A stretch of DNA of 64,000 bases from Cenococcum geophilum (Eukaryota), in assembly GCA_050273025.1 (NCBI GenBank), contig CP158635.1, forward strand, positions 11,284,001 to 11,348,000, given 5' to 3'. The notes below the pieces were generated by a model. The model was not told the DNA's origin. It saw only the letters and a list, made by a program, of their open reading frames with translations, and searched no databases. The position numbers were made by a program, and so were the translations under genes. Of the stretch, positions 1-61,471 are shown one piece after another; the first letter of the stretch is position 1, and the number at the start of each line of letters is the position of its first letter.

Positions 1-3000
1 TTAAGCTTTAAGGGGCATAAGCCATATAAGATATATTAAAATCCTTAAGGATAGCTAAGGGAGAGACCGTACTATTATAGCTATACGATATAAATTACTA
101 CAACTCTAAGAGGACAATCTACTTCTCTATAACTCGCAAACGAAATTATAGAACACTTAAGAGGTAAATAAGTAGATAGCTTTATAAAGCCTTTCCGAAG
201 ATAAGCTTAAAGTTAGACGCGCGGAATATGCCATTTAAGTATAGATCTTTACGGGTGGCACGTACAGCAAATTTCTTAAACATTATAACTTAGTAAGACG
301 TCAATCTCTAGGCGGATTATAGCCCCGACGTTTTCCAACTCTATTTTTACCTATACCTCTATATTTTCTACTTATCCTAAATATACAACTAAGGAGAAAT
401 TACATACATAGGGGCGCCTCTAATTTCCTATCTAAAGGGAAGTAGCGGAGATAATAATAATGACTTAAAGAAGCGAATAAGTGTATAGATCGTAACGCTA
501 CAAATATTAGGTGACCTTTTTTTCATATATATAATTAGGTAGGGAATATACACCCCTACCTAATTTATTATTTTAATTTCTTATCTATGACTTATTTAGT
601 ATAGGATTTTTATATAGCCTATCGTTTCCACGCGCATTTAGCGCAGGGTATTTCGTAGAGCAAAAGGCGTAATGAGAAAGGCGTGGTATAACCACAATTT
701 TTACTAATTCTGTTAATCTTACCAAATTCTTAACTTTATTCCCAGATTCCCTAGACCACGTTTATAGGTTTTCCTACTTAGTAATATAAATACTCTATAC
801 CCGTTAATATTTATTTTTAATAAAATGATAGAAATCTAATAAGTATAATAAAATCGCAAAACTAACGTCTTTAGGTTATTAATACTTCCGTCGCTTAAAT
901 ATTTATTATACTAATAATATAAAAAGAACCCAGGAGATCTTTATATCCGCACTATACTTAAAGAATAAAAGACTATATTCGAACCCTTTTATTCCGTAAA
1001 GGTTTAACAAAAGATATTAAGCTATCTTCCTCTTAGTAGACATAAATTCTTAAGAGTAGGCTATAAAACGATTATAATAGACCTAGAAACATTATAGAAG
1101 ACGCTAAATAGAAACGCCACCTTAAATAACTAAAAGTGGCAATACGCAATTTAAGAAAAACTAAGGATTGAAGAGACAATAACTATAGAGATATACTAGG
1201 CAAAGTCCTAGCCTAGTTATAAGGGTCTTGTCAGAGAGTAATAGGAGTTAAAGGAGTTAGGGAAGATAATAGTTAACAACTATAGCCTACTAAAAGAAAG
1301 AAATTACATAAAGATATTAAAAGGGTTCTTTTATATAAGCTTATATAATACTAGTACAGATATTAAGTTGGTAAGAGCAGACTTATTTAAGTAGTATTAG
1401 TATAAAGGATTAAATAATACAGTTAACTGCTTCCTAACGGGAAATTGTATAAATAATAAATAAAATCTTATATTATACAGCCTTTAGATTAATATAAATT
1501 AATCCCAGGTTATACTTTAAAGATAATCCTACTTTATTCCCCTGGGAAAACTAAACAAAATTAAAGAAGATTTAATTGGCAGAGATTTATATTTCTAGTA
1601 GGTATCTTTCTTAAAACTAAAGCAAAGCGTAAGTTAGCTATACTAGAGGCTATATTCTTTCTTAGTAACTATTAACTTACTAATTTAATGGCTACCTAGG
1701 TCCCTTAGCTGTGGCTTAGAGTACTTATTTTTACTAAACATTATTATTAATAGCGAAATCCCTTATTCTATTATTGATTTTATACTTCCGAATTCTCCAT
1801 AGCCAATACGCCATCGGAGTTTACCCGACCAACCCTTAAATTTATTCCTTCCACCTCTTTTATACAGGTACTCTCTTTTAAGAGCTATATATATTAGTTT
1901 AGTTATAGATAACCATTATAATTAATCCCTTAAAATAAAGACCATTATTTACTTTTTACTCTACAATATTATATAAGTTTATAGCTCTTCGTCAGTAAAG
2001 TAAAAGAGCCCCCACCTATAAAGCATATCTAACTTTTTATTTTATAGATTATTTTTATCTTAAAAGTAAATAAGTAGGGCAATCTTATAGGGGATATAGG
2101 ATATACGCGCAATTATAGTAAAGACTACTCTCTTTTATATATTTTAAACTAATAGGCTAATTCTAGAGTAGCTAGCATTTAAGAGTTTTATACTATACTT
2201 AGTCTTAACTCTTTAGAATCCTTCTATAGTGTATTTTAAGAACAGCAGTGCTAGATAAAAGGGTATTTAAGACTTCAGGCTGCCCCTAGCTCTCCCATTA
2301 ATGCTTACTACTAAGAGAACGGTATAATATCTACTCCAAAAGTATAGGATAGCATTATAGGCAATATGTACTAGTTTAGAAGTTACTAGCCTAAAAGTAC
2401 GGACGGCAGTTCTAGTAGGCAGGACACTACCTCATGGAATGAGGTACAAACATAAAAAGTAAATTAAGGGAAACCAAACGTATTACTAAGAGGGAGAGGT
2501 AAGAATTCCTTCTTTTTATTAAATTACTTACTAAAAGCGCGGAGTGTTAAATATTAGCCTATTTAATAAAGGAACATATAGCAGCGATAGCAGTAACAGG
2601 CCTTGCTAGTGTTTATTTAGAATACCTTATAATGTTCAAGTTAGGAGCGTATACAGAGTATATTAGCTTTAGGATTTCTTAGGTTAATATAGACCACATA
2701 CTAACGCGGTTTAGGTAAGATTTATAGGCCTATTTAGTTTTAAGCTAACTTAAGCAGTTCTACACCTCCTATATAGATATTAACATTATAGATAAATAGA
2801 AGTAGCACTTAGCTTATAAGTTAAGAGGCGTTAATAGTGGCTATATATAATACAGCAAATAGCTATTTTACTCTAGTCTAGGGCTATAAAATTTTTATAA
2901 AGACACTCTCAATTAACGTAACGTTTAATTATACTATACTTACTAGTCTATAGCATGCTAAACTCTACCTATTTACTATACACTACTTAATTATCTCTAA

Positions 3001-3195
3001 CGTGTTAAATACTAAGATATAAATATTCTATATCTACTAAATTTAATCTATATAATTTAAAGTAAGTATCTCTATCGTTAAGCACAGCCGTATAGGAGGT
3101 ACATTAGCTGTAATCGTAATTTACTAAAACTAGGCTAGACGCTAATAACACTAAATCAATCCAGCTTGCCTTTAAGTTTCGTACTTAAGATACCT

Positions 3196-3924
3196 CTAGC
3201 TTCCTTTAAACCTAAGGTATTTTAGCGGAACCCCTATCTTGCTTATCTCTCTAATAACTGCCTTATAAAAGCTAAACCGAATCTTAATAGGACTATTTAT
3301 AAATAGGAACTCATCTATATATTCACCTTCCAGAGCTATAAATTCAATATTAAGTTCCAACACGTTGGCTTTTATAGCGTCAGAATTAAGTTCTAGAAGA
3401 CAGTAGGCGGTAATCATTACTATAATTCTAAAAAGTAGAGATTTATTAAGAAAATCTAACACCATATCTCCGGAATCTAGGGGGAAAAAGGTATAGAATA
3501 CGGTCACTAACAAACTTTTAACATTTTTGATATATTCCCCAAACCTAACTAAGGTCCTTAGTACATAGTCTCGTAGTCCTAAATAGGTAATATCCTCCCT
3601 TATAAACTTGTAAATGTGTATAATATAGCCTATATAGTCATTATAGATATATCTTTCGCCTAGGTACAGTTTGCTATAAAAAATCCAGTTAAAGAAAGCA
3701 ACTAAAAGGTATAAAGGGTAGTTCTTATAATTTAAGTCACTTATTTTAAGCTTTTTGGGGCTCCTAGTCAGCTTATTAAGAAAGCGATTACTAATACTAT
3801 ATAAAAGCGTACACGGGGTATATAATTTTATATTATTATCGCCTACGCTATTAGTATAAATGGTAATAATATTAAAGTTATAGCTCTTAGTTGTAAGTAA
3901 GTCTTTCTTTATATTAAATTCCAT
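3196..3924 (-). pseudogene. RIP-mutated BTB/POZ-like domain protein (longest surviving ORF)
   Basis: The 242-aa ORF is skewed to I/Y/K/N, as expected from RIP. The segment 'IITIY...VG...LLYSISNRF...LLVAFFNWIF...LVRFGEY' resembles fungal BTB domains. Confidence 0.4.
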
Positions 3925-4077
3925 AGCTAAAAACTTACCTATAGAATGTAGTGAAAATTAGATCTAGGTAGTTAACCATTTTTAGGCTAATGTATATGCT
4001 TTTAGGTATATTCTTATAGCAGAATCCCTAAGGATCTCTATATTATTAATAAGCTAATAAGATAGGAATGGCTATAA

Positions 4078-9639: not shown

Positions 9640-11879
9640 ATAAGGAACTTTAATAGATCCGACCCCTAATACTACTCCCCTTAAGAAATCTAACAATCTA
9701 TAATAAAAAGGTTATCTATTAGTTCCTCTAAAAGGATGCTGATTATATAATAGTCTAAGCCATTTCTAAGTAAAGTAAAGGTTAACAGTTTACCGCGTAA
9801 TCCCTAGCACTTAACCTATTTTAAGAGGTTAATTACTAACTAAAGCTATCGCATAGTTCCTGGTTTATAGCTACCTTAATTAGTGTTATCTATTTCGTTA
9901 ATGCAATACCTAGCAGCATTCTTTACTTAATTAAGGAGAGTTTTCGCCTCTTCTTTTTATATATAATGACCCCCGCCCAAGTATTCGGATATAGCTTTAA
10001 CGACCGTTATAATTAATATATATCCACTACTATAACCACTAATCCTAGGTAATAATCCTTAATTAATAATAATAACTAGTATCTCTGTCTAAGTGACGAT
10101 TAAAGGCAGATAGTGCGGAGTAGGAAAGGAAGCTCAAGATAGAGCTGGCGTAGGAGGTAGAGTAGGAGGTAGAGTAAGAGACGCAGAATTATACGAATTA
10201 GATATAATTAACTTAACTATTATACCACTTAGGTAGTTAAAGTATACTAAGAGAACGAGTGCACCTTATTAATCCTTAAGCTGGTACCGATCTTATTCTA
10301 TAGCCCTGATTATATTCGTGTCCGTGTCCCTACAGAGCCAGTATAAGGCGTAGAGAATGGCCCTGCGTATGCCCTAGAATAGTAGTAAGATATAGCTCTT
10401 ATACCGAGTTTAAGTCAATATACCTCAATAGGGTAGTATAAGTTTATAGGTAACACAACCCGTAATAGAGTATTATTAACTATAAGGGTAAAAAATAGGG
10501 GCGACACCACGATTCTTATAACCTTGCCTAACTTCCTTTTCTCTATACACCTTATTATAAATAGTCCCCAAGCGTCTGGCGGAATGATCCTTCCCTTCCT
10601 ATCCTCTAAATGGAATTTGTAATTCAGAATAGCATTATAAGTTTGTGGATTTTTAAACCCTTTTAATATAGTATTTCGCAGCGTCTAAATATAGTAAATG
10701 TAAGCACCAGAAATATCTAGCTAGTTATACCTTATATATAAGGCACAAGATAATCGGATAAAGGAAATAATTGCCATACTGGTCGATAAGAGAAACATCA
10801 ACGACCATTCCGTATCAGTAGGGCCTAGTAGGGCTTATAGCGTGCCTAAGTCCTTAGAAGCCCCTATAAAAGCAACGTACGTCAGAGAGGATTTTAAAGG
10901 CATCCTATTAGAGATATAAAGGCCAGAAGGCTATTAAAAAGGAAGAGTAGTTTTCATTTTCTATTAGAGCTAATAAAGTGTTGCTTAACCTAACAGAATA
11001 AATCTAAGGCCGAGGAACTCTCTATTATATCTAAATTCAACCCTATCTAATAGCAAGTATAATTATAGGCTAAGCCGGCTAACCCTTCCCCTTTTCATAC
11101 ATATTAAAAGCAAGCTACTATTCTACTAAGACATCTAACACCCCTATCCAATCTACACATTCTAGAAAAGCTATAATTAGTAAATATTATAGCTCCTTAT
11201 AGGGAATGTAAGGATATAAAGGCGGGCTTATATACTTATTACGGTTAACACGCCATATTTAGCAATCCGGGTTTACAAAGACACGTCACCCTACCTAGAC
11301 GCTTTATACGCGAGAAGGGCTAGTATCTTAAATCCTAGTAGTTTTATAGGCTTAGCTCGCAAATTAATAACGATAAAAAAAGTAAACTAAGAACTGGTAT
11401 GCTATATAATAACAATATTAAGCCAGCCTTTATAAAGCTATAATGGGCCTACTCCTTAGGCCTTACCTAATTTAATAATATAAATACACCTGCCATAATA
11501 ACAGTAAAGAAACAACCTACATAACTAGCGATAAGAAAAACCTACGGCTACTATAAATAAACGAACTTTAGAGACTCCGTAAAATAGATATTTCAAGTAA
11601 TAGTAGAACAGCTAAATATCACTACGGGTATAAAAATTAGAACTATAATACCAGCAAGGACAAAAGTGGGATCTATATAGTATTAGGCCTAATACTATAG
11701 AAATAGGGTAAATATTATAAGTGTGGGAGAATATAAGGTAGGAAAAATTAGCGAGGCATTAGGGCAACGGGGCAACTTATAGTTAACATACACCTCCAGC
11801 CACTAGGGTACAATTCTCTATATACCCCCAAGTTTCCATCCTCCCCTTATAATGCTATTAAAATTCAGATATATTTAAT

Positions 11880-12270
11880 TAGGAACTTCCCTCTTTAGAA
11901 GCTAACGCCAGCTTCCCCAGTAAAGAGATAGTAAGCACTTCTTTTCTTTTCTTAGAGCTTAGTGCCATAAAGGTAAAGCCGTACTAAACTTAATAGTTAT
12001 TAAAGCAACCTATTAATCTTTATTAAGGCGTTAAAGGTTTCTATACTTTCTCTTAAATAGGTATCCCCTCTTATAGGGGATTGCGATCGCCAAAGGCTTA
12101 CGGGCATTATAGTGGCGTCCTACTATATAGGAATAAGTACAAAAGAGAGTATTTATAGGGGTACTTAAAGTTATGTAAAGGACGCCACTAAGAACGCTAA
12201 TATAGCCATAGCTACATTAGCGCTCTTAATGGCGCCCTTCGCTCTTAAACTAGGTTAACTCTATACCTCG
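11880..12270 (-). pseudogene. Small hypothetical gene relic, paralog copy 1 (copy 2 at ~16173-16600)
   Basis: Direct similarity to 16173-16600 (e.g. aagagatagtaagcactt...gttattaaagcaacctatt...cttaaataggtatc). The minus frame reads DTYLRESIETFNAL...LSLYWGSWR.LLKREVP. Confidence 0.55.
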
Positions 12271-15200
12271 CTACAAACCTATTCCTCTTCTTACTTAAAG
12301 AGATGCAAAGTTTATTAAATATATTTATGCCCCTAATCCCCCTAAACGACGGCGATCACTAAAAGGAGAATCTACTACTATAACCACTACTACAATTTAC
12401 CGACTAGTATATAAATAAACCACTAAAAGACCTCTAGAGTTAATACTAAACCCCAAAAGCAATTAAAAGTAAGCAGCTATATAGCTCGCACCTTTCTACA
12501 CCTACTAACCCTATAGGCATCCCGTACCTCACGTTTAACCATATACACCTCCACCGCCTATTTAATCCGCAGCCTTCCTACTTACTAGTCGCAGCTTATT
12601 TATACCCAATTAGTCTTCTATAGGTATTTAGTACAGAGGAGTAAGATTAATAATGAAAAATGCCCTAAAACCTACCGTAATATTCCAAAAAGGGTAACTT
12701 AGCTAAACTGCCCCTTAATACATCTAAACGCTATATAGAGTACTCTTACATAACATAAATAGGCTTTTCGCGTAGCCCATTAAAGGAGTTATCTATAATA
12801 CTCTCCACCAACTATTAGCCGCTATAGCAATATCATAGCTTCTTATTACTAGAAACAGCCTTCCCACCTACTAAAACTACCGCTTTACTACGTTAGCTAA
12901 AGAGCCCAATTTCCAGACTTTTCTTTTGGTCTATAACTTTAAGAGCAACTAGGAGGTATTAGCAGTAATAATTAAGTCGTACTAGGTAAGGTCTTCTTCC
13001 CTAACCCTAAACGCTTTATATTTACACTTTATAGCAAGCTGCAACATTTTAATTATACGGCTTATTATCTGCTATTATAACAATCCCTAAAAACTTCTCT
13101 AATGTCCTAAGCGCGGCAATTAAGAGCGCTATAAAATACAATTTAAATATACCGCAGCACTATTTACTATATATATTTAGATAGCAGCAAAATTCTAGCA
13201 GCGGGAAGGAAAATGCAATTTGCTATTATTTTCTAAAGTGGGCCTTTAAACAGAAGAAGTAAAAAGCGTAGATTAGTACTAGTGGGAAGCCTATACTATT
13301 AGCTATTAGAAACTAGGGTAGACTTACCTAAAGTCCATAAGAAGGCAATTTTATTATATAGTGGGAGTAATACCAAATAACCGGAGGGCTAATAAACACT
13401 TTCACCTAAGCCTATATTTAGATGGTTCTTATCTATAAGTATTTTATCCGTATATTATTATATATCTACTCTTTTCTAGTGCTTAGAGCATACTTTAAAG
13501 TGCATCTAGCTTACTTAAGTACCATTATCATCTAATAAATTAGCCGCGAGACCTCCTTTGGTGACCTCCTAATAATAAGCATACTAGCTATGCGCATTTA
13601 CCCCACTTTATATAGTTACATTTATCTCATAGCGGCTTTAAGCCATCCCTAACCTTTATTGCTTATTAATTATCTTACACTCTGTTACTATCTAGAGCAT
13701 AACTAGAAGCAAGCGGTATTTGTCCGTTTATAGCCTCTAAATATACATCATGGCACCCTCCTATTTATAGTCTCGGCTTAACGCCTCGCATATAGGCATT
13801 TACCGGTCTTTGTTATCCGCAGCAACTATATTATACCGCATACTCCTATTAGGAAACTATAAGACAGTATACGTGTCTACAATACCAGGTTGGAGATAGG
13901 GACCGTATTTAGTTAATCTAGCCTAACCCGCATACGTATAAATAGGCTCTTTAAACCCTCCTTAGCATCTAGCTTTAATTATATAAGACCTTTATCTCTG
14001 TCGCCTTGAAAATTATCTTATTATTCTACCGAAATCACCATTACCCCTCTTAATACAATGGATTCTACCGCAAATGAGTAGGTATTAGGCGTTGCGAGCC
14101 ATAAGAAGTTTATTGCGTCTGAAAATTATAAAACATTTAAGGATAAAGAGATTTTATCCCTAAAAGTAGGGCCCCTACTTATCTAATATAGAGGATAAAA
14201 TCCTAATATTATAGATTACAGAGGTATCTAATATAAATTTTACTACCTATCTCGTAGATATAAAGGTAACCCTTTAAGAAACCAAGTATTAAGTAACCCT
14301 TACTATTAATAAAATATGTATAAGCCAAGGTGCGGAGCTCTTAGTTAATATAGTAGAGGGTTCCACTTTTAATATTCCTACAGAACCTACGTTGCGAAAA
14401 GCTTATCTCGCTAGTTTTATAGCATACGGCTAAACCCTATAGAGGGTTTATAAGAGGCAACTTAAAAATATATATTCCAAAGGGAGACTATATAGGGAAG
14501 TAGTAGTCCAGTATTTAGTGGGTTTCCTTATAGTATTAACAGTTGGTAAATATCTTGCCTTCTAGAGCTATATAGCGGGGAACTATTAACAGATAGATAT
14601 CGTATAGATACTTAAACTAAACCTTCTACTAACAGCCTATATTTCGCCCACTACAATTTAGTTACTTAATATTCTTTATTTAATGTTAACTAGCCTAGTA
14701 GCGGCGCAGAGTAGGTCTCTAATTAGATTACCTCCCCGCTACCTTATAGCCTATATATCATTCTATCGCCGCCTTTTTGGCAAAGGTTAGTCTATTTAAT
14801 ACTAGCATCTATTATCTAGTTAGCCCTACTATTATTATATATAATTACATTTAAGCCCACTATAAGCGTACCCACTATCTCCGCTATATAGGAAGATCGC
14901 TTCCCGCCCTAAAAGGTAAACTTACTTTAGGGAGTTATATACCTCAAGGGACAAACCGCTTACCCATTCTTAAATTATCGCCATAAAAAAGCTCCTTTAA
15001 TGCACAGCGCTATCTTATATAAGCTTCGACCATACTGCTTAAACGGGCGAGGAAATATAAATAGGGTAAAGATCGAGCGCACCATATAGAACCTTAGCAG
15101 CAGTTTAAAGCTTTAGAGATATTTTCTGCAAAGTAAAAGCAAGCAGTAAAGAGAAACTTAATATAGCCGCAAAGATATCCACTATAGCCAGCGCTCCTTT

Positions 15201-46579: not shown

Positions 46580-46650
46580 CCCATCTTATCTACCTCATCC
46601 ACCTCATCCACCTCATCTACCTCATCCACCTTATCTACCTCATCCATCCG
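46580..46650. repeat. 9-bp tandem repeat (CCTCATCCA)n
   Basis: cctcatccacctcatccacctcatctacctcatccaccttatctacctcatcc. Confidence 0.8.
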
Positions 46651-46912: not shown

Positions 46913-49237
46913 ATGCGTTTTTAGCGTGGCCTAAGTTCCTATAAGGGCGAGCCTAAGCTTTATTCTTTAGATTAACTCTTACACCCAAGCCTTAATCTTA
47001 GTGATATTCGCCTATAAACTTTCTACTTATACACACAACTGCAAATCCACATAGTATTTAGCGACTAAGTAGTAATATAGGAAAAATATTTAGCGACCGT
47101 ATATAACAACCAGACCTGTTACTATAATAACGGCAAATATTAAAAAGTGCGGCTTACGGCGTATAGAAATTAATGCTAAAGATTAAAAAGCTGGGTAAGT
47201 GGCCGATGCCGAGCCTATAGATAAGGGAGATGAACTTAGAGCAAATTCCCTAGTTATTTATAGATATCCTAACGGAATTTCCAAAGGGGTTATATTACGC
47301 CATTTCGGTTTAGGTAAGATAACAACGCTAGGCATATTTATAGTACCTATAACCAGGTAGCCATTACCACTAAGGGTAGTAGTTATGTCTGGATAAAGAG
47401 CTCCCGTTTTAGAGGCAAGCTATATCTAGGTTATATAGTGAAGTAAAGTTTTAAATATAGTCCTAGTTATATTTAGTAGGACTTTTTAAAGATTTTAGAA
47501 ACGCTACTTACTTCGTTAACTAGGAATCTAAACAATTACAAGTTACTTACACAGCGATCATATATAGAAAGGTAATTAATTTAAATAGCATTACAGTAAA
47601 AATTCCAAGAAATGCTTATATATTTAGATTGAACAGGTATAATGCGGTAGTTATATTTATACTAAAGGATAAGCAGAAACAGAAAGTGGCTAACTTGCCT
47701 TAGTCCGGAGATATTTTAAATATAGTTTAGATCCGCCGCGAATAGCTAATATCTAGGCCCTCCTAAATAAGAGGTTACTATAAAAGTGATCCTTAACTAA
47801 TTCTTCCTTTTCTATAAGCCTAGTACTAAATAATAGCCAGCAAGTATAGAATGGTCTAAATATTAACATTACGAGGACTCTATATATTAGGGTGACTTTA
47901 CGGCCAAATCTAATAAATATATTAGTAAGAAAGCTATATTTAGCAATAGGCCCTCTTTCTTAAAAATGCTAAGAGTTAAAAAAACAACTCGCTCCAAAGT
48001 AAAGGAAGGAAATGCCAAGGTTGTTTAGCAGTAAAATGAAATTAAAGCTCTAAAACTTTAATTAGCGGCTGCAAAGGAGAAGAAGAGTGGAGAAGGGAGT
48101 AGCGAGTAGAGTAAAGAGGATAAAAGAGAAATTGAAGAATTAGATAGAAAGTTATAGGAGTTAACGTAGGATAGCTAAATAGTATTAGATAACGAAGATA
48201 GTAGAAACGGCGTAGGCTCTAAGGGCGTAAATGAAAGGCCTATAGAGTCTATAGAGCCTAATGAAGAGAGAGAGGCGCTTTTTATTCTAGAGCTATGGGA
48301 TATAGACCCCTAGGGCGTAAAACAAACGCCTATAAAATAAGAGCCTCCGAAATAAGAGTATATAGGGTTAAGGCCTGCTATAAAAAGCGAGTTATAGGAT
48401 AAAGTTTACGGGGAGCCACTTTATATCGCCGCGAACTCGCAACCTAATTATAATACTACTTATAGGTGCACCATTGCATAGGCAGATGATTAAAAGGAAG
48501 TCATTAACTGCTACGGTCCGCGTAATGCGTCTATCTATAGAATTATAAGAGGGGAAGTAGAGGGGGATTACGCATTTCCTCTAAAGGAAAAATATACCAA
48601 CCCTAATTTCAGACTTAGGGAGGTAAGAAGACCAGACGGGAAATTTCTATACACTATTAAGAATATTACTTGCCTTTATATAGTCGCGTGGAAATCCAAG
48701 TACCTAGAAAACCCTTAAGAAGATTTAAATTTAATTTATTGGAATAAAGCAATAAAGCCAGTAAAACGGTTTCCTACTACGTATATTCTGGTTAACTAGC
48801 GCATAGACAAAGGACTAAAGCAGTATTAGGAGACTAGAGGAACTATTTAAAATAGGTACGGCACTAAACTAGCTAATTAAATAATTTATTAAGTAGCTAA
48901 ACAGGCTAAGCTAAGACTTAAGGAGCACTTAACTAGTATACGCCTAGCTGTAGACAGATCTCCTATACCTAGTATTCTCTTCCTAACGTCTCAGCATTTC
49001 CGCAACATTTTAGGTACTCTGGCTCTGACTAGAACTCCGGCTCTAATTAAAACTCTAGCTTTGGCTATAGGGGCAGCTAATATAGCCACATTGACCGCTA
49101 TCCTTAAAAATTTTAAGAAACTCTACTATAAGCTATCCGGGGTTAATAGTTTTAATAAACTTGACCCTATAAGTAAGGTAGGATAAATAGACGCGTAGAA
49201 GATAGAAAGGGTAAGGTATATAACAATAGCTATCTAA
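46913..49237 (+). pseudogene. Large hypothetical protein relic (possibly two genes) with an acidic linker and a C-terminal 'YGP...VAW...PTTYILV.W...WETR...DRSP' domain
   Basis: Long frames broken only by TAA/TAG. I recall this motif from fungal accessory-region proteins of unknown function. Confidence 0.55.
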
Positions 49238-49965
49238 TTCTTCCCTAATAGTTATTTATTTTATTTTTTCTTATATAGCTTAAAAACAAAAGACAAAAAA
49301 AGAAACTTAGAAGGGGGGCGTTTTCTTATTTAAATTTTATTTGTCTTATAGCTTTCCTTTATTATACTTCCTCTTCTTTATTTATAAAATAACTATACTA
49401 TAAATAAAACTACTCTTTAGTGTTATTTATATCACAAGCCTTACGTTTAAAATCTTACCTCCTATTAAATGCGAGATTCTTTACAAACATAAATTCCTAT
49501 ATAGCATTGCCACGATTTACAAAAAGCATATAAAATCTCTATAGGTTTTTATTTATAGTGCCTTAATATAAACTATATTTCCGTTTAGTGTATTCTTTAT
49601 AGCTAGTTATTTTAACATATTAAACTAACTTACTTAATCCGCCTAATCTACCTAATCTATCTAATCTATCTAGTCTACCTAATTTACCTAATCCGCCTAA
49701 GCCATCTAAGCTACCTAGTCCTTTCAATCCTTCTAGGCAGTAATACCTACGCTTCCCTATTGCGCCTTACACTAATCGACATAGATTTTAAGACGGTGGG
49801 ATAGTACCGCTAGGGAACAAGTCCTTTTTCCGTTAATGCCTCTATAACAAGGCGTACTTAGTAGGGCTCAATCTATTAAATACTAAAGAACTATAATAAA
49901 TTGGCGAAGAATGACTAAGGTAGGCCTTAGCGACTCTAAGCTAAAGCTAAATCGTACCCTACTCA
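49175..49965 (+). repeat. Segmental duplication copy A (copy B at 53274-54725)
   Basis: Colinear similarity: acgcgtagaagata...aaagaaacttagaaggggggcgttttcttatttaaattt...gcattgccacgattta...ggcgtacttagta...agcgactctaagctaaag. Confidence 0.9.
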
Positions 49966-51363
49966 CAGCTTACTTTAGCAATTAAAAACCCTTAAATTTA
50001 GCTTTATAAAAAGGCTTATATAACTATAGAGTCGGTAAGGCATATATTAAAGCTCTATAACGGTAGTATAAATACCTATCTAAGAAGTTCATCTATTTAT
50101 CAATCCTCCAGCTTAAGACGTTTCGCTATAGGTTATATAAACTCAAAGACTAAGAAACCGGAGCATCCGATCCCTAAGACTGCTTTCAACCCAGTATAAG
50201 CTAAGCACCTTCCTCCAGGATATAAGTAAACGATATATTCCGTTTTTAAATATTTTATAGACACATACCCGAATGTTTTAAGTTATCGTTTTAAAATCCA
50301 TATCTACGACGGCCAGATATCTTAACTAGCTAATATCGCGACCTAAAAATGCGTAGTAAACCTAATCTACCTGGCCCTAAAGCTTTAGGGGGCAAAAGTC
50401 ACTGTTTAGTTTATATTATACTCGAATCCAGCCTTAATAGATAATGAATTAGCTATAGCACTTGGCCTTATAAACGATATATTGTCCTGCGCGAGCTTTA
50501 TAGATCTTTGTAACCTATAGACAGATCGTAAAAAAGAGCTAAAGGACAAGCATAATAAAGGAGACTTTTAGGGCGCAAGTTGTAGGGGGGAGCTTAAGGA
50601 CAAAGAGGATAATAAAATTGTCTCTCTTATTAGCAAAGCCATCGCCAAAGGCACGCAATTAAAATCCAAAGGGGTTAATAGTAAGACTATTATGGCCAAC
50701 ATCTACCAAGTGCTATACTTAGCACGTTATCGCTACCACAAAGGCTAGAACCTTAATAATTATATAATGAAGCGTAATGGTTTATAGGAAGACGCGTAAT
50801 GGCATAAATCTCAGGATAAGGCGTTCGTTCTCCCAGCTCGGTTTAAGTCTCTTTTCGCTAGCGCTATATAATCCTTTTAGGCAGCCGCGGAAACAGCTAC
50901 AGTCCCAATAGAGCACATTGTCTTAGTCCCTAAGGCTATTATATAAACAGCGATATTAAACATTAAACTTACGGCTAAGAGTGTAGTTAGCTCCATTAAA
51001 CAGTATAATAAACTGCATAATACTAATAGGACTTAATAGGATCTTTTTGGGATATCTATAGTTCCGATCAGCAGTAAACTAGGTTAGCGATCGAAATAGC
51101 AAAGTATAGATAACCTATTTACTAAAGAACTAGACTTCCTAAATTGCACCCCAGTTAGTGGTGAAATTCGAATAAATAGGCCTGGGTACGAATTTCTGTC
51201 TAAGATAATCTTAGGCGCAGTTAATAAATCACTTAATTGTGGCAAAAAGCTGCAACTCTATAGGAATGAACTTTGCGAGATTCCTTTTAAAGAGGATATA
51301 AAAAAGTTCCTTAAGTTTACAGGGGGAGAGCGTAACAGTTTACCAATATTAAGGGCGCTGTAA
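49911..51363 (+). pseudogene. Hypothetical protein relic
   Basis: Begins ATG ACT AAG, continues in long frames with only RIP-type stops, and ends ...FLKFTGGERNSLPILRAL-TAA. The frame shifts once (intron or indel). Confidence 0.5.
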
Positions 51364-51546
51364 CAGTTTAGATAGTGACATTAATATTATTTAGTATTTT
51401 TATTATTTATTTATCCTATAGTAGGGACAGTAAATATTATTGCTTACCCTTACTATATTACCTATATCTTAATTCTACAATTAATATTTAGGCCTCCTCC
51501 TTTCGTCCTTATTTATAGAATATAAATGCTAAGTTACTTATTGTTT

Positions 51547-53068
51547 ATAATAATAATAATGAAGTTTATTCCACCCGGAGGCACTAAGCCTAAAGGGTAC
51601 TAGTATTATATTATATAATTTCACTTCCTTTAATATCGCTATATTCTTATACAAGCCCATATATCTACCTTATTTAGTACTTCCTAGTCTTACTTATACT
51701 TTATTCTACAAGATCTTATAAATAGTTAGTAGCAAGTTGTCTTAGGGTCTATTCCTCCAAGTATTCAGTGTCCTATCTTCGGCGATTAAAGCGAGATCTG
51801 CTAGTAGCACAAGGGTGCGTAGTATAGGTTAGTTAAAGCGTAGAGGAGGGGGGGGAGTTTCTAACTGTGGTGGACGGGTTATTGATTTAATTCTACCTTA
51901 AGTCATCTGGTAGCTATTGCGTATTTTACTATCGCTCGGACCGCGTCCATATTTAATATCTACTATCTAGAGTTAGTTAACGCCTTCCCCCCAAAATAGA
52001 AGGATAAGCTGCCTCTTCTTATATCTATTTACTGCAGCATTTACTCTTAATATAATATCCATTTTATACACCTAAAGAGAAAGTATTTAACTATTTCTCT
52101 TACCTATCCGCAATTATATTAATCTAATTCTGCCGCTCCAATGCGGTGCAGATACCTATTAAGTTATATTATTCCTATCTATAACTAGGCCAACACATTT
52201 ACCTCTTCTCGCTTAAGGGAGTTATATAGCCTACGGGTATATTTACCTAGTAGTACTATGTCCATTTTTCTTAAATACCTTCCTACTCCTTCCGGTAGTG
52301 TTTTCCTACCCCACTATTTTATTCTTGCGGTGTTTATTATTATAGCCTTAGCCTAATATTATTGTCCTCGCGGTAGGCGTCCTTATATAGTAGCTCGCCG
52401 TACTACTACTTTTGCCTTCTTACCTAGTTCAAACTCCCCTTAAGGGACCCATGCAATAAAAAAACAGTTACTTCTTTACCTTAACGTGCGGGCTATATTA
52501 TAGATCTATACAATACTTATTTAGCTAGATTATTGCTTAGGTTAGCTAATCGCCAGTAATACTACCTAATTACTAGTAAATATAGTAATCTATCTCTCCT
52601 GTAGATCTGGTAGTAAGCACCTTATTACTATTAATATTGCCGCCAGTTTAGCTATATATAGGTTCTGTTCTGCTCTTAGTCCTAGTATAATTAAGTATAT
52701 AACAGCTTCCCTATTTAGCGTATTGCTAAGGGTGTTATAGACAACACCTCCCATCCCCACCATGCCTCTCCTCCTGGACGAGCTTGTTGCGATCTATATG
52801 CCTTAGGTGGAGTTAGCGGCTTCAGTTACCCTATCTTTATCTAGGTTAATGCTTATAGGCAGTCGGTCCTCCTATAGTAGTACTACGTAGGGCTAAATGA
52901 CCTCTATCTTATCTATTGGTATATGTTAATGTATATAGGCTATCTTCTACAGTGGGGACATAAACCTCTAGAGCACCTTTATACGGAGCCTTAAGAGCGG
53001 GTTCGTCTTATACAGCGTATTAAGGTCGACCTATAACTTAGTGGCCCTCTCTAAATGCCGCTCGCGTA
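51547..53068 (-). mobile_element. 5'-truncated fungal LINE (Tad-like): RNase H plus C-terminal zinc-finger region and 3' tail
   Basis: De-RIPed minus frame ...GVGRY.RKMD..LPGKHTRRLYDSLKREE.NVLAQL.TG...LN.YLHRIGAAE.DQC.CG..RET.KHFLFRC.KW. The 3' end shows AATAAA followed by (ATT)n at ~51547-51570. Confidence 0.85.
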
Positions 53069-53268
53069 TGTCGGGAATATAGGGAACTGGTCATTATATA
53101 AAGCAAATTGCCATCACATATAGCAAGTTGCCGTCACGTGTCGCCGCGGCACTAGCGTGGCGAGGAGCCTTAAGCTCCTCGCCCTTCCTCATTCCTAAAG
53201 TATATAATAAACAACTATTATACTATCTACAAACCGTAGCTATATAATATTACCTTATAAGACCAATA
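53069..53268 (+). mobile_element. Family B LTR, 200 bp, without a matching TSD
   Basis: Termini tgtcggga...gaccaata, homologous to 27383-27582. The flanks gcgta and gttta do not match. Confidence 0.8.
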
Positions 53269-53354
53269 GTTTATAAGGTAGAATAAGTAGACGCGTAGAA
53301 GATAAAAAGGGCAAAGCATACAGCAATAGCTATCTAATTTTTCCCTAACAGCTC

Positions 53355-53580
53355 TATTACGGCACTGGCAGAAAGCGGTAGCTATAGTAGACGTTATAGT
53401 AGACGTAGGGCTTACGTAACTCTTACGTAACTAGGGGATTATATATAACTCCTCACGTTACTACTTATCCTTTCCTTTCCTTTTCTTCAGCTTTAGATTC
53501 TTGTTTATAGACAATCCAATTATATAGGCTTGCGCGACCCTTTTACCATACTTATAGCTTAATTAACTAAGTTGCTAACA
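53355..53580 (+). mobile_element. RIPed solo LTR, family A, 226 bp
   Basis: Termini tattacggcactgg...aactaagttgctaaca with a perfect TSD AGCTC. Absent from paralogous copy A. Confidence 0.9.
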
Positions 53581-53743
53581 AGCTCTTTAATTATTTTTTT
53601 CTTATATAGCCTAAAAATAAAGGACAAAAAAAGAAACTTAGAAGGGGGGCGTTTTCTTATTTAAATTTGTTTCTTTTATAGCTCTCTTTTATTAGTATTA
53701 TTTAGTATTATAAGCCTTACCTTTAAAACCCACCTCTTATCGA

Positions 53744-53970
53744 TATTAGCGACTTAGTCAATTAAGATATAAGCACGGCAAAAGGGTCGCGCAAGCCTAT
53801 ACGATTGGATTGTCTATAAACGAGAATCTAAAGCTAAAGAAAGGAAAGGAGAAGAAGGGGAGCGCCGCTCGAAGCTATATACAATCTTCGCGTCACGTGA
53901 CCGCAATATACGGCAATCTATAGCAACTTGCCAATATATAGTTCTACTAAGTTCTACTAGTACTATAACA
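53744..53970 (-). mobile_element. RIPed solo LTR, family A, 227 bp
   Basis: Reverse-complement homolog of 31153-31379 with a perfect TSD ATCGA. Confidence 0.9.
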
Positions 53971-54466
53971 ATCGATCTATTATATATAGCCTAGCCACCC
54001 TAATATAGCTACCCCTCGCTACTTAAATATAAGATTCTTTACTAACATAAATTCCTATAGGGCATTGCCACGATTTATAAGAAGTATAGGAAATCTCTAT
54101 AGGTCTTTATTTATAGTACCTTAATATTAATTATATTTCGGTTTAGCGTATCCTTTACAGCTAGTCGTTTTAATATATTAAACTCATCCGCCTAATCTAC
54201 CTAATCTACCTAATTTACCTAATTTACCTAATCTACCTAAGCCATCTAAGCCACCTAGTCCTTTTAATCCTTCTAGGTAGTAATACCTGCGCTTTCCTAT
54301 TGCGCCTCCCGCTAATTAATATGGATTTTAAGACAGCAGGATAGTACCACTAGGGAATAAGTCCTTTTTCCATTAATGCCTCTACGGCAAGGCGTACTTA
54401 GTAAGGCTCAATCCATTAAATACTAAAGAATTATAATAGATCGGCGAAGAATAACCAAGGTAGACC

Positions 54467-54681
54467 CAGTAATATCAGCGGGTAGGTTAGTTAGGTTACG
54501 AATTTTAGCCCTTAACTAAACTAACTAAGTTAGTAATTTAACTAGTTAAACCGGTTAAACCAATATAAAATTACTAAATTAAGTAAGTGCTAAGCCTATA
54601 TAAGCTAGTAAACTAATTAAGAATTTTAACCGGTTAGCCTTTTTTTATTAGTTTAACCTAACCTAACCACTAATATTACTA
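54467..54681. mobile_element. hAT-type MITE, 215 bp
   Basis: TIRs cagtaatatcagcgg / ccactaatattacta (RIPed), subterminal ggtta/taacc repeats and an 8-bp TSD ggtagacc/ggtagact. The empty site ggtaggcc is at 49919-49926. Confidence 0.9.
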
Positions 54682-54799
54682 GGTAGACTTTAGCGACTCT
54701 AAGCTAAAGTTAAATCGTACCCTACTGTCCTTAAGTTTTAAATTAATCTAATACTTCTTTTCTTCTACCCTAATTTTTATTTTATTTATTATATTTTAA

Positions 54800-55930
54800 A
54801 TAACCCCTAAGGCTCTAACGACCTTTCTTACCCTTATCTAATTTATCGTATAGGTTTTAGGTATAAGCTCCTCTAAAGAAAGATATTCTTTAATTTCCAT
54901 TCCACCTTTAATCTTAATTTCACCTTCTTTAACACCGAGTTTAGTGACCCCTTTCGCAACCGCTACCAATGGCAACAATATAAAACTCCACGTCATCACA
55001 ATTAGGAAGCTAACTTAGCAATTTATCCCAAACACTATAACGGCAAACGTAGGAGATATTATTTATTTCTAATTCTTCCCGCCTAACTATTCCGTGGTTC
55101 GCGCTAAGTATAAATATAAGTCTAAATCGTATTAGTTCCCTCTATACCTTCGTTACTAAACCAATGTAAAAAAGACCCGTATATTCCTTATAAGATAACG
55201 GGGCCGTAAAAAACTAGCTTCTTCTCTAGATTTTATCTAATAGACGTAGTATCCAACAAGGTAAAAGCATATTTTTTCTATTTTTAATATATCCGCTTTA
55301 TTCAATCGGTAATTTATATTTTAATAGCCGCCGTCATAAAACCTTACCATTAATAATACCGCGCCGATATTCTTCTACTGTTTAGCTTCCGGATCGTGCA
55401 TTTAATAAGGAATAGTAGGAGTAATAAATCCTATAAGGGGATAAATTATTTACTATTTCCCCCCCTCCTTTTTTACTTTATTATTATTACTATTGCTATT
55501 TTAAAAGCCGTATATATCTTATCTTAGATTAGCCTATTAAAAGTAGGTATAGAACAAGACCGAAACCATCGCCATATAGAGGGCATATGCTAAAAATTTA
55601 ACCTTTATACTAAACCCTGGCGAACCATTCCCAGCTAAAGCCTTAAGCATAGTCACCTTAACTTAGGCGCCTATATTAACCTCCCCATTAACCGCGATAA
55701 CTAGCAGCGCCTTATTATCTGCAACTTTAATTCCACCTTCACCTTCCTAAGACCTTTCCAGTGCAGCAGTAGCAGGAATAGTCGTTGGCGCTATAGTGGC
55801 ACTCACGCTCCTAAGCGCCTTATTCGTCTATATTAGCAGAAAAAGATCATCTAGTTTAGATAAGGGCGGCACTATAGTACTCCCTCACGAATTAGAAGCT
55901 TTATATCCAGCGTACCATAAAGCAAAAATA
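54800..55930 (+). pseudogene. Extracellular Ser/Thr-rich cupredoxin-like protein relic with a C-terminal TM helix
   Basis: HVITI.KL..QFIPNT.TANVGDII.F.FFPPN.SVVRA.Y...P.IPY...FFS.F...NLTIN.TAPIFFYC.A.GSCI..G.VGVINP, then LSSAAVAGIVVGAIVALTLL.ALF. Confidence 0.8.
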
Positions 55931-56144
55931 TAATAAAATATAATTTTTCAATTATAACTAGATCTTAAGTATTAAATTTGTAGTTAGGTAACTTAAATGC
56001 GTTTTATAGAGGAATAGAAAGGGAAAAAAACAATTTCCTTACGTCAATAGTAAGATAGAGAAGAAATTAGTCAATATAAAATAATTAAACAAGTCTATAT
56101 ACCTTAGGTACTTTCCTTTCTTCGCTATTTAACTTAAAATCAGC

Positions 56145-57850
56145 TATCTCAGTAACTAGCAGCCAGAAGTCTGGCTATACTTATAAGCGTATCTAGGTGC
56201 ACCAGGCCCTATACATTAATTCTCGTCTTTATCACCTCTATATTTAACTTTTAAGCCTCCTTCTTTCGTCCTTACTTATAGAATATAAATGCTAAATTAC
56301 TTATACTGCTAGCGGTATCTAAATAATCATTGCCAAAAATCTCTCTCTTTATCTTAACCACTTGTTTCTACAGCTCCTCCGCTTTTAGAAGTCGGTTCTT
56401 TATATAGTATTCAAAACTTAGCTCTTCTATACTTTTTAGAGTCTCGGGATGCTATAGGCCTAGAATTCTCTTTCTTATCTCTATTACTTAAGTTTCCAGC
56501 TTATCGGCTTCCGTTCGCCGTTTTTAATAATAATAGACTTCCGCTAAGACGGCCATTATACTTAATATCTGTAAATAGTATTAGCCTAATACCCTATTAC
56601 TAGTCTCTAGTAACTATAGTAATAGCTCTTTAGCATTAGTTAGCTGTTCCTACTTAACGTAGATATAAGCTAGGTAGATTTTGCTTTCTAAAGTATCCCT
56701 ATATTCCGGCCCTTTTAGTTTCCTAATTATCTCTACTAGCCGCACCTAGTACTTTTCAGCCTCTATAATTCGGCTAGTTTTAAAATATATCTCTACTAAA
56801 AGAGGAATAAGTTCTATCTTTTCTTTCACTCTATTATACTCCGCTATATCTTTTTTATAAACTCTATAATACTAACACTAACATACCTTTAGTAAGCAAG
56901 CTTTATATAACCAGTTAATACAACACCATAGCCGGACAATATTATCTCCGCTAGGCAACTTCCTAAAGCATATACAGCAGTGTTCTTTAGTGCCAATTCC
57001 AGCAACATCTTAGATAAGATACTTCTTAGGTATCTAGTTAAAATCGGAGGCCTTTATAGATATTAAAATAAGAGACGGCCCAAAAATAGATAAAAGGGCC
57101 TTAAAGAGAACACTTAAGCGTTAATAAAACTTAAGTATAAGAGTTATACGTTAGGGGTAAAGATATATTCAAATTAGCTAAATATAAAGCGAATTAATAG
57201 ATCCTTAGGGTTTAAAGCCTTTATAGGCGGCAGATACAATATATTAATAGTATCAATTTCGGCTATAGCCTAGCCGGGGTTAGCTCCCCGGTAAAGCTCG
57301 CGTACTACCTTAAGTATACCTAGCTCAACCAATACCGGGGATAATCTTATATTTAAACACGCAGGGCTCTTATAAATAAATTAGTAAACCTACCGCAGCA
57401 TTTATAAAATTTGGCAGTCTGTATTTTAAGGTTATAAGGATATAAAATGGCGAATAGAAGAAATTAAATAAATTAATCCAAGTATAGAAATAATATTTAT
57501 TTTAACTAGTCTAGCCATATAATATATCTGCAAATTTATCTCTTTATTCCCCTACGCTTTAGCCTAAAATCAGCTAGAGTTCTTTTTTTAGGTACTAGGA
57601 AGCTTTAATTCTACATTTTATTAGTATATACTATATTAAGAGGGTAAGTAAGGTATATAATATACTCTTTAGACGGCGGCTAAAAAAGCTTATCTCTAGA
57701 TAAATATAAGTAGTATCTCCCCCCATTATATACAAGAAGGTAGATATACGCATCGCTTATTTTTCCTAACTCGTCCGCCTTTTTAAAAAGTATTTCTCTC
57801 CGTCAGCGGATCGCCTCCCTACTAATACACTTATTCGAATCAGACAAGCG
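56145..57850 (-). pseudogene. TPR-repeat (kinesin-light-chain-like) protein relic
   Basis: About 42-aa repeats such as EA.KLE.QV.E.RKRILGL.HPETLKS.EEL and AEEL.KQVV.IKREIFGND..DTASS.SNLA at ~56150-56820. The N-terminal extent is uncertain. Confidence 0.75.
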
Positions 57851-58181
57851 AGTCCCTTCTCCCTAAGTCTCATTTTCTTCTATAGTCTCGCTGTTATTGC
57901 TAGCTTCTATTAGTTATATCTAATAAAGGGAGGTATTAAAGTAGTTAACACCTATCTTAAGTTAATAGTTATAGAGTGGTATTATAATGACTAAATATGT
58001 AATAGGCGATCATATTAATAGTAAAGTTGGTAAACCCTTTCCTATTTAGTAAATCCCTTAACTTTATACCTACCATTAAGGGTAACAATAAGGCACACAC
58101 TAATATTATTTAGCAAGCGGTATTAACACCTAGAAAACAAGTAATACACCTATAACTTTCCTTATATTAACAAGTATAAAA

Positions 58182-60600
58182 ATAGCAACAAATCTTATCG
58201 TAGGTCTTCTGCTTCTTCTCATCCCTTACTTCTTCTTAGATTATAATAGCGTTAAAGCAACGTTATCCGCGGCCATAATAATTATATAGGCTCCTAGGTG
58301 GCAAAATACTACTATAAAAAGAACGTCTTCGACGCTACCTAGCGACTTCACTACTTATTCTTCAGCACAGACCATAATCTAAGAAACTCAGACTAATAAG
58401 TTAACTTCCGAAGATGGCGTTCGCACTGTTATTAGCTCATTAGACAGTCCTATAGATTTTTAAAGCTCTTCCATCCTTTCTAAGAGCACTAGCCTCGTAG
58501 AGCCTTAAACCATCACAATCTCTTTTAATATTGGACCCCATTATTCTCGCATAAGCACTAGGATAAACTCAAGTTTAGTATCTACTACCTTACTATTAGC
58601 AGTAATAACAATTACAAATATATATAGACCTCTACTTTTAAAGAGCTATTTAGTCCTCTTTATAGCCACTAGTCTTATAGGGCCTTAGAGCAGTATTACA
58701 ATTTATATTAAGGTCGAATCTTAGCTTTCTCTTATAGGTACTAGGATAGATATAACTCTAACACCCACCAACCTTTAATAAACGGTAACAACTATAGCAA
58801 ATCTAAACGGATTATCACGTTTAGAAAGCTTTTCGATTATCTTAAAGGGCACTAGCTTTATCCTCTCTTAAAGCCTTAGTATAACTTATACTAAAGCCTT
58901 ATCCTAGCTCTCTCTTATAAGGACTAAAAATAACTTAACTTTAATATCTATTAATTCCACAGGGGCAACTATAACTACTACAGAAATTTTAAATGGTGTT
59001 TAAACTTTAAATAGTCTTCAGATTTCCTTAAAGAGTAATAGCCCTATAGAACCTTAAAGCGCTATTATAGCTTATACTAAAGCTAATCCCTAGATCTCTC
59101 TTATAAGCACCACAACAGATCTAACTTTAAGATCCGTTAACTCCCTAGGGACGGTTAAAACTATTACGCAACCCTCTAACGGACTATTATACTCTACGGT
59201 ACTACCGCTTATATCGGATTTAAGCCAGATATCTAGGTTAATATATACTTCTCTAAATTCCCTTAGTAAAGCTTCCTAGTCTACAAGTTTAATCCCAAGT
59301 TTAAATAGATATTCAAGCATTTTAACCACCCTTTCCAAATCCACACAGCTACTCTCTTTCCTATTAACACGGCCTACAAACAGGGAGGGCCTTATAATAG
59401 CTAGCAGTACTTTTACGTTCAGCTACACCGTATCTATCTTAAATTCTATAAACCACGCATCTATTTTAGTTCTCGCCAGTACCATAGCTATCTTAGTTTT
59501 AACTCGCAACACACCTATCTTAGTTCCTATTAGCACCAAAACTGTCTCAGTTTTTACCAGCACTATATTTATTTTAGCTTTTACCAGCACTATATCTACC
59601 TCAGTTCCCACTAGCACTATATCTATTTTAATTCCTACTAGCGTTATATCTTCCTTAGTTTCTAATAGCATTATATCTATTTTAATTCTTACCAGTACTA
59701 TATCCATTTTAGTTCTAACCAATACTATATCCATCTTAAATCCTATAAGCTCTACTATTAGACTTCTATATATATCTCTAGATCCTACAGCCTCTATTTC
59801 TACCTCTATCTCTTCTTTTTATATTATAAAAGTTATAGCTACTATATATACGCTTATACGGATAATTCCAACTTCCCTAATAACGCTATAGTCACTTAGA
59901 CGATTTTTAAGCGCTTTAGACGTCGCTCCTAGTTCCTTAATTTCCTTAAGTTCCGCAATTCCAGCTAAAGAAATAGCTACGGTTTTACTACTAGGTTTAA
60001 CTAGACAGGACTAGATAGACTAAAGCAGCACAACAAATTTTATACTAGCTACCTTAATAATAGATTTAGGGTCCTTAAGTACTAAGCTTCTTAGTATCTT
60101 TCCTATATTAACTTCGGAAATTGTTCTATTAAATATAGCTATAGGTAGAAGCTACTCTAAAGCTTAGACGAGCTCGCAGATCTTAGATAAACCTAATACG
60201 CTAATTACTTCTTTCCGTACTATTATTTCCTCTAATAACAAGTATTATACCGCTTCTACCACTACGCAAATATAAGTGCCAAATAACGGCACTCTATTTG
60301 GTAATTCTTTACAAAGTTATATAGTAAAGGCTAAAAGTATTAGGGTTAGTCTTAGTACAATCACTAGGATACTAGCCTTCGCAGCCGCGATTATATTACT
60401 ACTAAGGCAATATAGGCGGCGCTAACAGGGCATAATAAATATAAGAAGGCCAATTATTTCTCGCCCTTTTCCAATCTAGGGATACGTTTTAGCTCTACTA
60501 TTTAACACTATATAATATATACGGGAGTTTAGATATATTATTTATCGTTCTCTAATATATAAGCTAGCGTAAAGTACCAAAGTAAGTTAATAGTACTTCC
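58182..60600 (+). pseudogene. Ser/Thr-rich type-I membrane/cell-surface protein relic with an internal 27-bp repeat
   Basis: Signal peptide (M)ATNLIVGLLLLLIPYFF, a long S/T-rich frame, 9-aa repeats at ~59430-59740, and a TM segment I.V.L.TIT.ILAFAAAIILLL followed by RQYRRR near 60340-60422. Confidence 0.65.
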
Positions 60601-61471
60601 GTTTTAGTAAATAAGATTACGGCGGCTTATTTATAACATATTAATAGGCGCATCCCTTATAATAAGTTAGGTTATAGCGATAGATTAGTATTACTAAAGG
60701 CCCGGTTAACTTATCCATCAAATTTTAGGTAGCAACTACTTCTTAAAGTACTATATTTACGTTTATATTAGAGGCAGGTACCATCTTCTACTACTATATT
60801 CTAAGACTAACTTTCATAATATATAAATTACTACTCTCCCTAGTATTCTTTTTTCCGACCACTTTTAGGCTCTAGAACTATACATCGGATAGAATACCTA
60901 CTATGCTTATTACTGCAAATTAAGGGGGAGGGAATCCTATATAGAATTTTGGCCTACCACTTTACCAGGATTATAAGGTACCTTTTAATAACACCTAACC
61001 TTATTTTATAGCGGGAGGTAGAACTAGCATCTCTTATTTATATTTTTAAAATAATTTAGAAGCTAATAGTTATAAATTCTACGTTATATAGTTTAGTAGT
61101 TCCTTAACTAGCCTTTTCTCTATAAGTTATAGGAATAGCTATTAAATATAGAACTACTATACCTCTTACAGTCACTCCGCAAATCTTAAAATTATTTCCT
61201 CTTTCTTTAATTAACTGCTACGCACATAGCCATCTTTCTAATAGGACTGGCGCAATCAATTAATTTAACGCCTTAACTCCGCCGGAAAATCCATATATTA
61301 TTCTTATCAACTTAATAAGCTATAGTTCTACTATTAGTATATCCTCTTAATTATATAAAACAACCTCCCTTAAATAGTTTTATTATAAAATTCTCTCGTA
61401 AAACGTAATTGTATATTACTTATAATTTATATAGTCTTAATCTACAGCTATGGCAGAATTGCATACATAAA

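Follow-up and report, generated by a model that had tools for sequence, protein, structure and literature searches.

In this work we analysed a stretch of 64,000 nucleotides of Cenococcum geophilum (assembly GCA_050273025.1, contig CP158635.1, positions 11,284,001 to 11,348,000), hereafter the window, almost all of which is taken up by a block of gene relics damaged by repeat-induced point mutation (RIP). The data presented below make it fairly probable that this stretch represents one copy, dead and rearranged, of a large mobile block that carried genes; such a block would most likely be the cargo of a Starship-type (tyrosine-recombinase) element, whose captain gene would lie outside the window or have been lost.

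1..61400, no strand: AT-rich, RIP-affected block of gene relics; the ends of the element were not found and both may fall outside the window.

RIP acts on duplicated DNA during the sexual cycle, and the genes and the spacers of a repeated block are mutated evenly. In the window, the RIP composite index is above 0 in all 64 bins of 1 kb and lies between 0.55 and 1.62 in 63 of them, while the GC content per kb is 29–41%, with the exception of positions 41001-43000 (49% and 48%). The observed/expected ratios over the whole window are 1.47 for TpA, 0.54 for CpA and 0.35 for TpG; the TpA excess, the loss of CpA and TpG and the low GC content expected of a RIP-mutated repeat family are all present, and just four stop-to-stop open reading frames (ORFs) of at least 100 amino acids are found. 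The action of RIP on duplicated DNA in the sexual cycle is described in PMC12910237, where 73% of one ectomycorrhizal fungal genome is RIP-affected and Starships come up only among the references. In addition, the TpG ratio is lower than the CpA ratio in every one of the eight 8-kb blocks, and C is more frequent than G all along the window; this strand asymmetry may reflect strand-biased RIP or the orientation of the genes.

A previous sequence-only reading of this DNA had described RIP as uniform over 60 kb. The indices are indeed high and flat, but the stretch 40956-42615 is an unRIPped long terminal repeat (LTR) element with a GC content of 50.8%, which was inserted after RIP. The same reading had spoken of many transposable elements (TEs) and allowed for RIP leaking out of them. 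TEs and short repeats are scattered over the window, but recognised repeats amount to only about 11.9 of 61.4 kb on the wider of our repeat lists. With the first list, the correlation between composite index and distance to recognised repeats is close to zero (rho 0.05, n = 98 bins of 500 nt); with the wider list, the index is 1.01, 1.06, 1.11 and 1.14 at 0–1, 1–2.5, 2.5–5 and more than 5 kb from repeats (rho 0.17, p 0.12, n = 86 bins), although TE relics left unrecognised could blur a distance effect. RIP damage shows no decay away from repeats, so that leakage from TEs is unlikely and its proposed contribution finds no support in the sliding indices.

The second line of evidence comes from sister copies. 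Metagenome contigs were scanned with the protein family of a relic at about 48 kb (hereafter the 48-kb family), and 4 of 294 candidates were confirmed. For one RIPped metagenome contig, L004 (GC content 34.5%), the alignment to the window falls into six blocks: 25491-26557, 27530-31117, 43431-49922, 54632-55975, 49506-51485 and 56111-56370. These blocks are 85–93% identical to the window, with 1436 transitions and 226 transversions; of the CpA sites, 61% differ between the two copies, versus 18% of CpG, 13% of CpT and 9% of CpC sites. The two copies differ, as members of a RIP family do, by CpA-biased C/T and G/A transitions in both directions. L004 is co-linear with the window over 14.3 kb in total, at least 6.5 kb of it unbroken, genes and spacers being copied together. 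Judged from the alignment, L004 is a separately RIPped, co-linear copy of 14.3 kb of the window.

The same alignment lends no support to the suggestion of the sequence-only reading that the whole window is one block. L004 joins position 31117 directly to 43431, and the segment in between is absent there; moreover, the segments at 49.5–51.5 and 54.6–56.0 kb are swapped in L004, beside a 460-nt repeat present twice in both copies. Since the L004 order also occurs in contigs of the DNA run X1 (joints 49927-54632 and 50933-56151), the segment order of the window is probably derived. Compared with L004, the window is, as far as the alignment tells, a rearranged composite.

Comparing eight relic frames (1934 codons) between the window and L004, we found 66 shared stop codons, 27 and 23 private ones, and 27 at-risk codons unmutated in both copies. 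Under independent RIP at a single rate 23 shared stops would be expected. The excess reflects either descent from an already RIPped copy or much hotter CpA sites, two explanations that two copies cannot separate; it hints that the copies may have multiplied after the death of the cargo.

The number of copies was assessed on DNA runs of three samples (X1, X6 and X15), whose contigs, from cultured isolates, were placed on positions 42700-62000 at 80% likeness; 4 of the 24 listed runs were placed on this stretch. Of these runs X1 matches best, and it is possibly the source of the DNA.

42700..62000, no strand: stretch covered as multi-copy by contigs of three samples (30 of 30 bins covered in each of X1, X6 and X15).

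Specifically, the long single contigs of X1 have depths of 108–127: a contig showing 0 differences from the window over 362 nt reaches 108, and contigs 8–18% different from it reach 115–127, as expected for equal-dose paralogs. The summed depth in X1 is 605–1452 (median 991), that is 5–13 times one contig, over 22 of 30 bins, 8 bins at TE level being left out; the per-site totals are 106–1946, with a hand-taken median of about 670 (about 6 times), over 36 of 40 rows, 4 rows of a long interspersed nuclear element (LINE) being left out. When X1 is compared to the window, 2080 of 2237 listed changes (93%) are transitions, in both directions. Comparable results were obtained with X6 (median depth 106 versus 6–11 for single contigs) and X15 (330 versus 16–24); the longest pieces of these two runs are 8–17% different from the window, a level at which a missing locus and a re-RIPped allele are indistinguishable. 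All together, these data support the presence of several copies of the 42.7–62 kb stretch per genome, roughly 5–10 and 82–92% identical, and its multi-copy state in three samples. The proposal that the block was once multicopy therefore stands for 42.7–62 kb, through the contigs of the three samples, and for 25.5–26.6, 27.5–31.1, 43.4–51.5 and 54.6–56.4 kb, through L004; most of 1–25 kb, and 31–43 kb, are outside its scope.

In a screen of sequence words from positions 42700-49200, a share of 0.66–0.71 was present in five runs, four from one sample and the fifth from another; the share was 0.10–0.15 in 15 further DNA rows, X6 and X15 among them, from which no reading of presence or absence is drawn, and there was no RNA run among the holders listed. 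When the RNA run X21, from another sample (about 12% of it read), was placed on the window, 349 reads were recovered, of which 286 have a likeness below 90%; 86% continue into sequence that does not match, and the changes number 316 towards G/C versus 54 towards A/T. These reads cover 49.8–51.7, 53.6–56.9 and 61.4–62 kb, and none lies over the ferric reductase (FRE) relic or the relics at 47–49 kb. Less-mutated relatives of parts of the block are transcribed, not necessarily the window's own copy.

The gene content was defined by comparing all six frames of the window with Pfam, stops being read as X, and relics were named through Pfam, phmmer, tblastn or Atlas. RIP reduces the sensitivity of such profiles, the FRE relic scoring just 20 bits. 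Twelve relics were named: FRE, two MADS, Bys1, TPR, HeLo-like, PD-(D/E)XK, BTB, DUF6914, DUF7492, a SUR7/Fig1-like protein and a Pfam-less fungal family. Four of them (Bys1, DUF6914, TPR and PigL_N/HeLo-like) pass the curated Pfam cut-off, and DUF7492, PD-(D/E)XK, BTB, the two SRF-TF/MADS and the FAD_binding_8 match of FRE lie below it. No core gene was named among the relics of the window. A codon model was also applied; versions with generic frequencies gave few segments and were replaced by a model trained on the named relics, which returned 30 segments scoring at least 10, versus 1–5 in each of five Markov-shuffled controls. Twelve of these segments are the model's own correctly framed training stretches and 18 are others; two come from retrotransposons located beyond 62 kb, and antisense shadows probably account for some. 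With the 12 named stretches and these segments, about 20 non-TE gene relics, as counted by the sequence-only reading, is a fair figure. Its description of the frames as mostly intact agrees with the comparison to L004, where five of nine stretches checked have no frame-changing offset and four have one or two. The Pfam matches to Nrap and DUF1958 were discarded as chance; the frame 47035-47937 (+) has no homologue and the same stop density as the off frames, is probably a wrong frame and was rejected as a coding relic, and no relic is named at 46.7–47.9 kb. The features of the window are as follows.

2033..2452, plus: weak DUF7492 relic (Pfam E 1.4e-5; 24.9 bits, cut-off 27).
3196..3957, minus: unnamed stop-free frame of 253 amino acids with RIP-like composition; no Pfam family, BTB-like by eye only.
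11783..16664, no strand: probable nested TEs, with 47-nt inverted repeats around a 211-nt direct repeat pair (11855-12065 and 16146-16355); the TE identity is our interpretation.
18161..18910, plus: unnamed coding relic (codon-model score 23.6; no Pfam family).
21673..22599, plus: SUR7/Fig1-like membrane protein relic (tblastn to L003:7717-8484, E 7e-16).
23686..26461, plus: unnamed ORF present as a diverged tandem pair (67%), whose second copy is 88.6% like L004.
28372..28821, plus: Bys1 small secreted protein relic (PF04681, E 9.5e-17).
29434..30830, plus: unnamed secreted-type relic with a Ser/Thr-rich tail (codon-model score 13.7; Pfam match at chance level only), which by eye we take to be like a lytic polysaccharide monooxygenase, with no profile match behind the label.
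31117..43431, no strand: 12.3-kb segment missing from the paralog L004, holding four relics, an inverted-repeat element resembling a miniature inverted-repeat transposable element (39573-40058) and the young LTR element; no target-site duplication was seen at its ends.
33377..33706, plus: weak PD-(D/E)XK nuclease relic (PF20516, E 1.4e-3, below cut-off).
34553..34960, minus: PF17111 (PigL_N) relic (E 8.6e-7; 29 bits, cut-off 27.2), presumably the HeLo-like N-terminal family of fungal NLRs.
36654..36911, minus: weak BTB/POZ relic (Pfam E 6e-3, below cut-off).
38687..39142, minus: DUF6914 relic (PF21858, E 5e-31).
40956..42615, plus: young, unRIPped, non-coding LTR element of 1660 nt, with identical 202-nt LTRs, TG...CA ends and a 5-nt target duplication; no Pfam match.
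43943..44140, minus: MADS-box (SRF-TF) relic, divergently oriented to FRE (Pfam E 4e-3, below cut-off).
44567..45990, plus: FRE relic (FAD_binding_8, E 7e-4, below cut-off).
47870..49234, plus: relic of a Pfam-less Pezizomycotina family of 400–500 amino acids (phmmer, 54 hits).
50140..51336, plus: unnamed relic of 400 amino acids, 73% like its L004 copy; no homologue from a search with the two-copy alignment.
51415..54010, minus: high-copy repeats, a 3' LINE piece (by eye) and short repeats, with depth 4,000–210,000 in X1; no Pfam match in the six-frame scan.
54697..55900, plus: relic of an extracellular Ser-rich membrane protein, read by eye, 85.6% like L004; presumably cupredoxin-like, with no profile match behind the label.
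56173..56856, minus: TPR-repeat relic (TPR_10, E 4.8e-20).
57650..57802, minus: second MADS-box relic (Pfam E 6e-4, below cut-off).
58256..60865, strand uncertain: long low-complexity coding relic with 27-nt repeats, Ser/Thr-rich on the plus strand; no Pfam family.

From 62050 to 64000 the gene block gives way to retrotransposons: by eye, a Ty3/gypsy-type element is represented by its chromodomain end, and a gag-like frame comes next; the LINE, gag and chromodomain labels are assignments that we presume, with no profile match. The LINE-like piece at 51072-53003 has depths of 4,000–12,000 in X1, 800–2,200 in X6 and only 51–92 in X15, which suggests that it expanded in particular lineages. An older, 68% relative of the LTR of 40956-42615 is located in L004 at about 1144-1279, a different site of the same block. 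The stop-free frame at 3196-3957 (-) runs for 253 codons amid saturating RIP, comparable relics carrying about 5% stops, and may owe its state to chance or to selection. In addition, the same tandem array with a 9-nt period occurs five times between genes (4078-4168, 21385-21433, 46581-46646, 49631-49721 and 54191-54257).

Concerning homologues, the FRE relic matches P0068, a protein with all three FRE domains (E 3e-4), in a search covering long proteins only (623–2000 amino acids), which returned this one match. A Pfam domain was found in 0 of 16 members tested of the 48-kb family, whose named members are hypothetical proteins of Geoglossum, Trypethelium and Alternaria; many Trp, Arg and Glu residues are invariant among its proteins (P0005-P0067). 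The Atlas leads for this family (best 0.80; chromodomain clusters 0.77–0.78) were too weak and were not used. In L003, an unRIPped fungal contig, a gene of the 48-kb family is placed between the homologue of the 21.7-kb relic (E 7e-16), an ORF that Atlas groups with SUR7/Fig1 clusters at 0.87–0.90, and a DUF7492 gene (E 6e-97), all within 5.5 kb. The three families thus appear to travel together elsewhere, and the Pfam-less one could be a marker of cargo regions. At 1025-6778 of L003, the three-gene module, flanked by two Hikeshi-like_N hits, is accompanied by a gene for adenosine deaminase and a weak match to nucleoside hydrolase.

The assignment to a Starship-type carrier as the likeliest one follows from this content, with FRE, and MADS beside FRE with BTB as in Logos h1, and from a published RIPped Starship with intact unduplicated cargo. 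Four gene families are associated with Starships, FRE among them (PMC9156397), and in the Logos h1 Starship of Aspergillus fumigatus a MADS gene has the locus number adjacent to that of freB, a BTB gene following four loci further (10.1101/2024.06.28.601215). In the RIPped Starship, cargo that was not duplicated escaped RIP (PMC11623301), which fits with RIP in the window having needed duplicated cargo. As regards movement as one unit, the co-linear sister copies extend over 14.3 kb and the multi-contig cover over 19.3 kb. The degraded-Starship rule asks for at least three hits among DUF3723, FRE, PLP and NLR without DUF3435 (PMC9156397); in the window FRE is present, and the relics of PF17111 and TPR, separated by 21 kb, might represent the ends of an NLR.

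Several findings weigh against this assignment. The sequence-only reading had recognised no DUF3435 captain, DUF3723 or patatin gene, and the six-frame Pfam scan of the window likewise returned no DUF3435 (PF11917), DUF3723, patatin, NACHT or NB-ARC; because RIP lowers profile sensitivity, the absence of the captain and of the auxiliary families is likely, not sure. Only FRE, of the four auxiliary families, is certain in the window, and the analysis of the window located neither element termini, nor a target duplication, nor an empty site. In addition, the segment 31117-43431 is absent from L004, so that the window may consist of several units. The DUF7492 relic at 2033..2452 has no tblastn match to the intact DUF7492 gene of L003, and no DUF3435 or DUF3723 was found in the 43 of 56 L003 ORFs scanned (20.8 of 97.5 kb), which leaves a Starship status of L003 unsupported. 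Summed contig depth is not a copy number either, as short overlapping contigs inflate it. Finally, Starships are expected at low copy number (PMC11162782), and the copy ranges of three M. phaseolina elements are 0–1, 0–3 and 0–5 (PMC9156397). The resemblance to Starship cargo proposed by the sequence-only reading is accordingly plausible in content (FRE next to MADS, BTB nearby, HeLo-like, TPR), but captain, DUF3723, patatin, NACHT and ends were not found in the window.

An alternative that we consider unlikely, while taking it seriously, is that the block became multi-copy through segmental duplication, with TEs recombining ectopically in accessory DNA rich in repeats, or else through a carrier without a tyrosine recombinase, RIP then acting in the same way. 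The lack of a captain and of ends in the window speaks for it, as do the breakpoints relative to L004, which fall in or beside short repeats, and the excess of shared stops, which fits the copying of already dead DNA. Conversely, the relics form an accessory, element-type set (FRE–MADS, BTB, TPR, HeLo-like) with no core gene named, and the multi-copy cover is flat in all three samples. Somewhat more doubtful is a nest of at least two mid-sized cargo elements, each multi-copy (for example 1–25 kb; 25–31 plus 43–62 kb; and the 12.3-kb insert), a possibility partly compatible with a Starship-type origin. The joint of 31117 to 43431 in L004 and the other order of two segments, which X1 contigs share, would be explained in this way, but the left relics at 21.7 and 2.0 kb and the right relic at 48 kb come from families whose genes lie side by side in L003, and the ends of the 12.3-kb insert lack a target duplication. 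Lastly, RIP leaking from adjacent TEs into single-copy genes is highly improbable: TEs and short repeats occur throughout the window, further TE relics may have escaped recognition and the copy-number evidence does not extend to 1–25 and 31–43 kb, but the composite index does not fall with distance and sister copies of the genes exist, which refutes leakage for 42.7–62 kb.

Under the preferred reading of a dead Starship-type cargo copy, the block would have spread to several places as cargo of a large element, RIP would then have killed every gene of the duplicated block, copies would have recombined at internal repeats, gaining or losing segments, and smaller TEs would have inserted both before and after RIP. 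We hold as speculative, and rather unlikely, the stronger proposal that a giant cargo element, although its class is described as low-copy and cut-and-paste, reached 5–10 or more copies per haploid genome and went on multiplying after RIP death, dead copies being mobilised in trans in the intervals between infrequent sexual cycles. If this were true, the genome would preserve a dated record of successive RIP rounds on one gene block, and the intact cargo could be recovered from the copies, including the Pfam-less family marking such elements across Pezizomycotina. If the Starship-type reading is right, the window represents a RIP-dead giant-element relic, whose gene-like cargo adds to the repeat load of the genome and is invisible to ORF calling. 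Such relics are known in kind, RIPped derelict Starships having already been described (PMC11623301); the copy number and the shared stops, if upheld, would bear on how Starship-type elements multiply and on whether dead copies still move.

In the literature searched, mostly non-subscription, the available portions held no account of this block or of a RIP-dead cargo family at such copy number, and nothing on multi-copy RIPped cargo appeared in the portions available of PMC12506042, PMC13562431 and 10.64898/2026.07.27.740988. Among described systems, the degraded Starships and Derelict of Macrophomina phaseolina (PMC9156397) resemble the window in being captain-less, in carrying Starship-type cargo (FRE) and in sharing large alignable tracts among copies or isolates. 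Derelict differs in having DUF3723, FRE and OCH1 that fall in Starship clades, whereas in the window only FRE is certain and RIP has killed all the genes. The RIP-mutated 'derelict' Starships of Paecilomyces variotii and Spiromastigoides (PMC11623301) are similar in that RIP on duplicated parts immobilises a giant element; in those cases a second copy is held responsible for RIP, which left the unique cargo untouched, whereas in the window all tested cargo is mutated, there are several copies and no captain was found. Logos h1 of A. fumigatus (10.1101/2024.06.28.601215), compared by description only, shares with the window the MADS-box gene beside freB and the BTB gene nearby but, unlike the window, it is intact and expressed and carries DUF3723 and a kinase.

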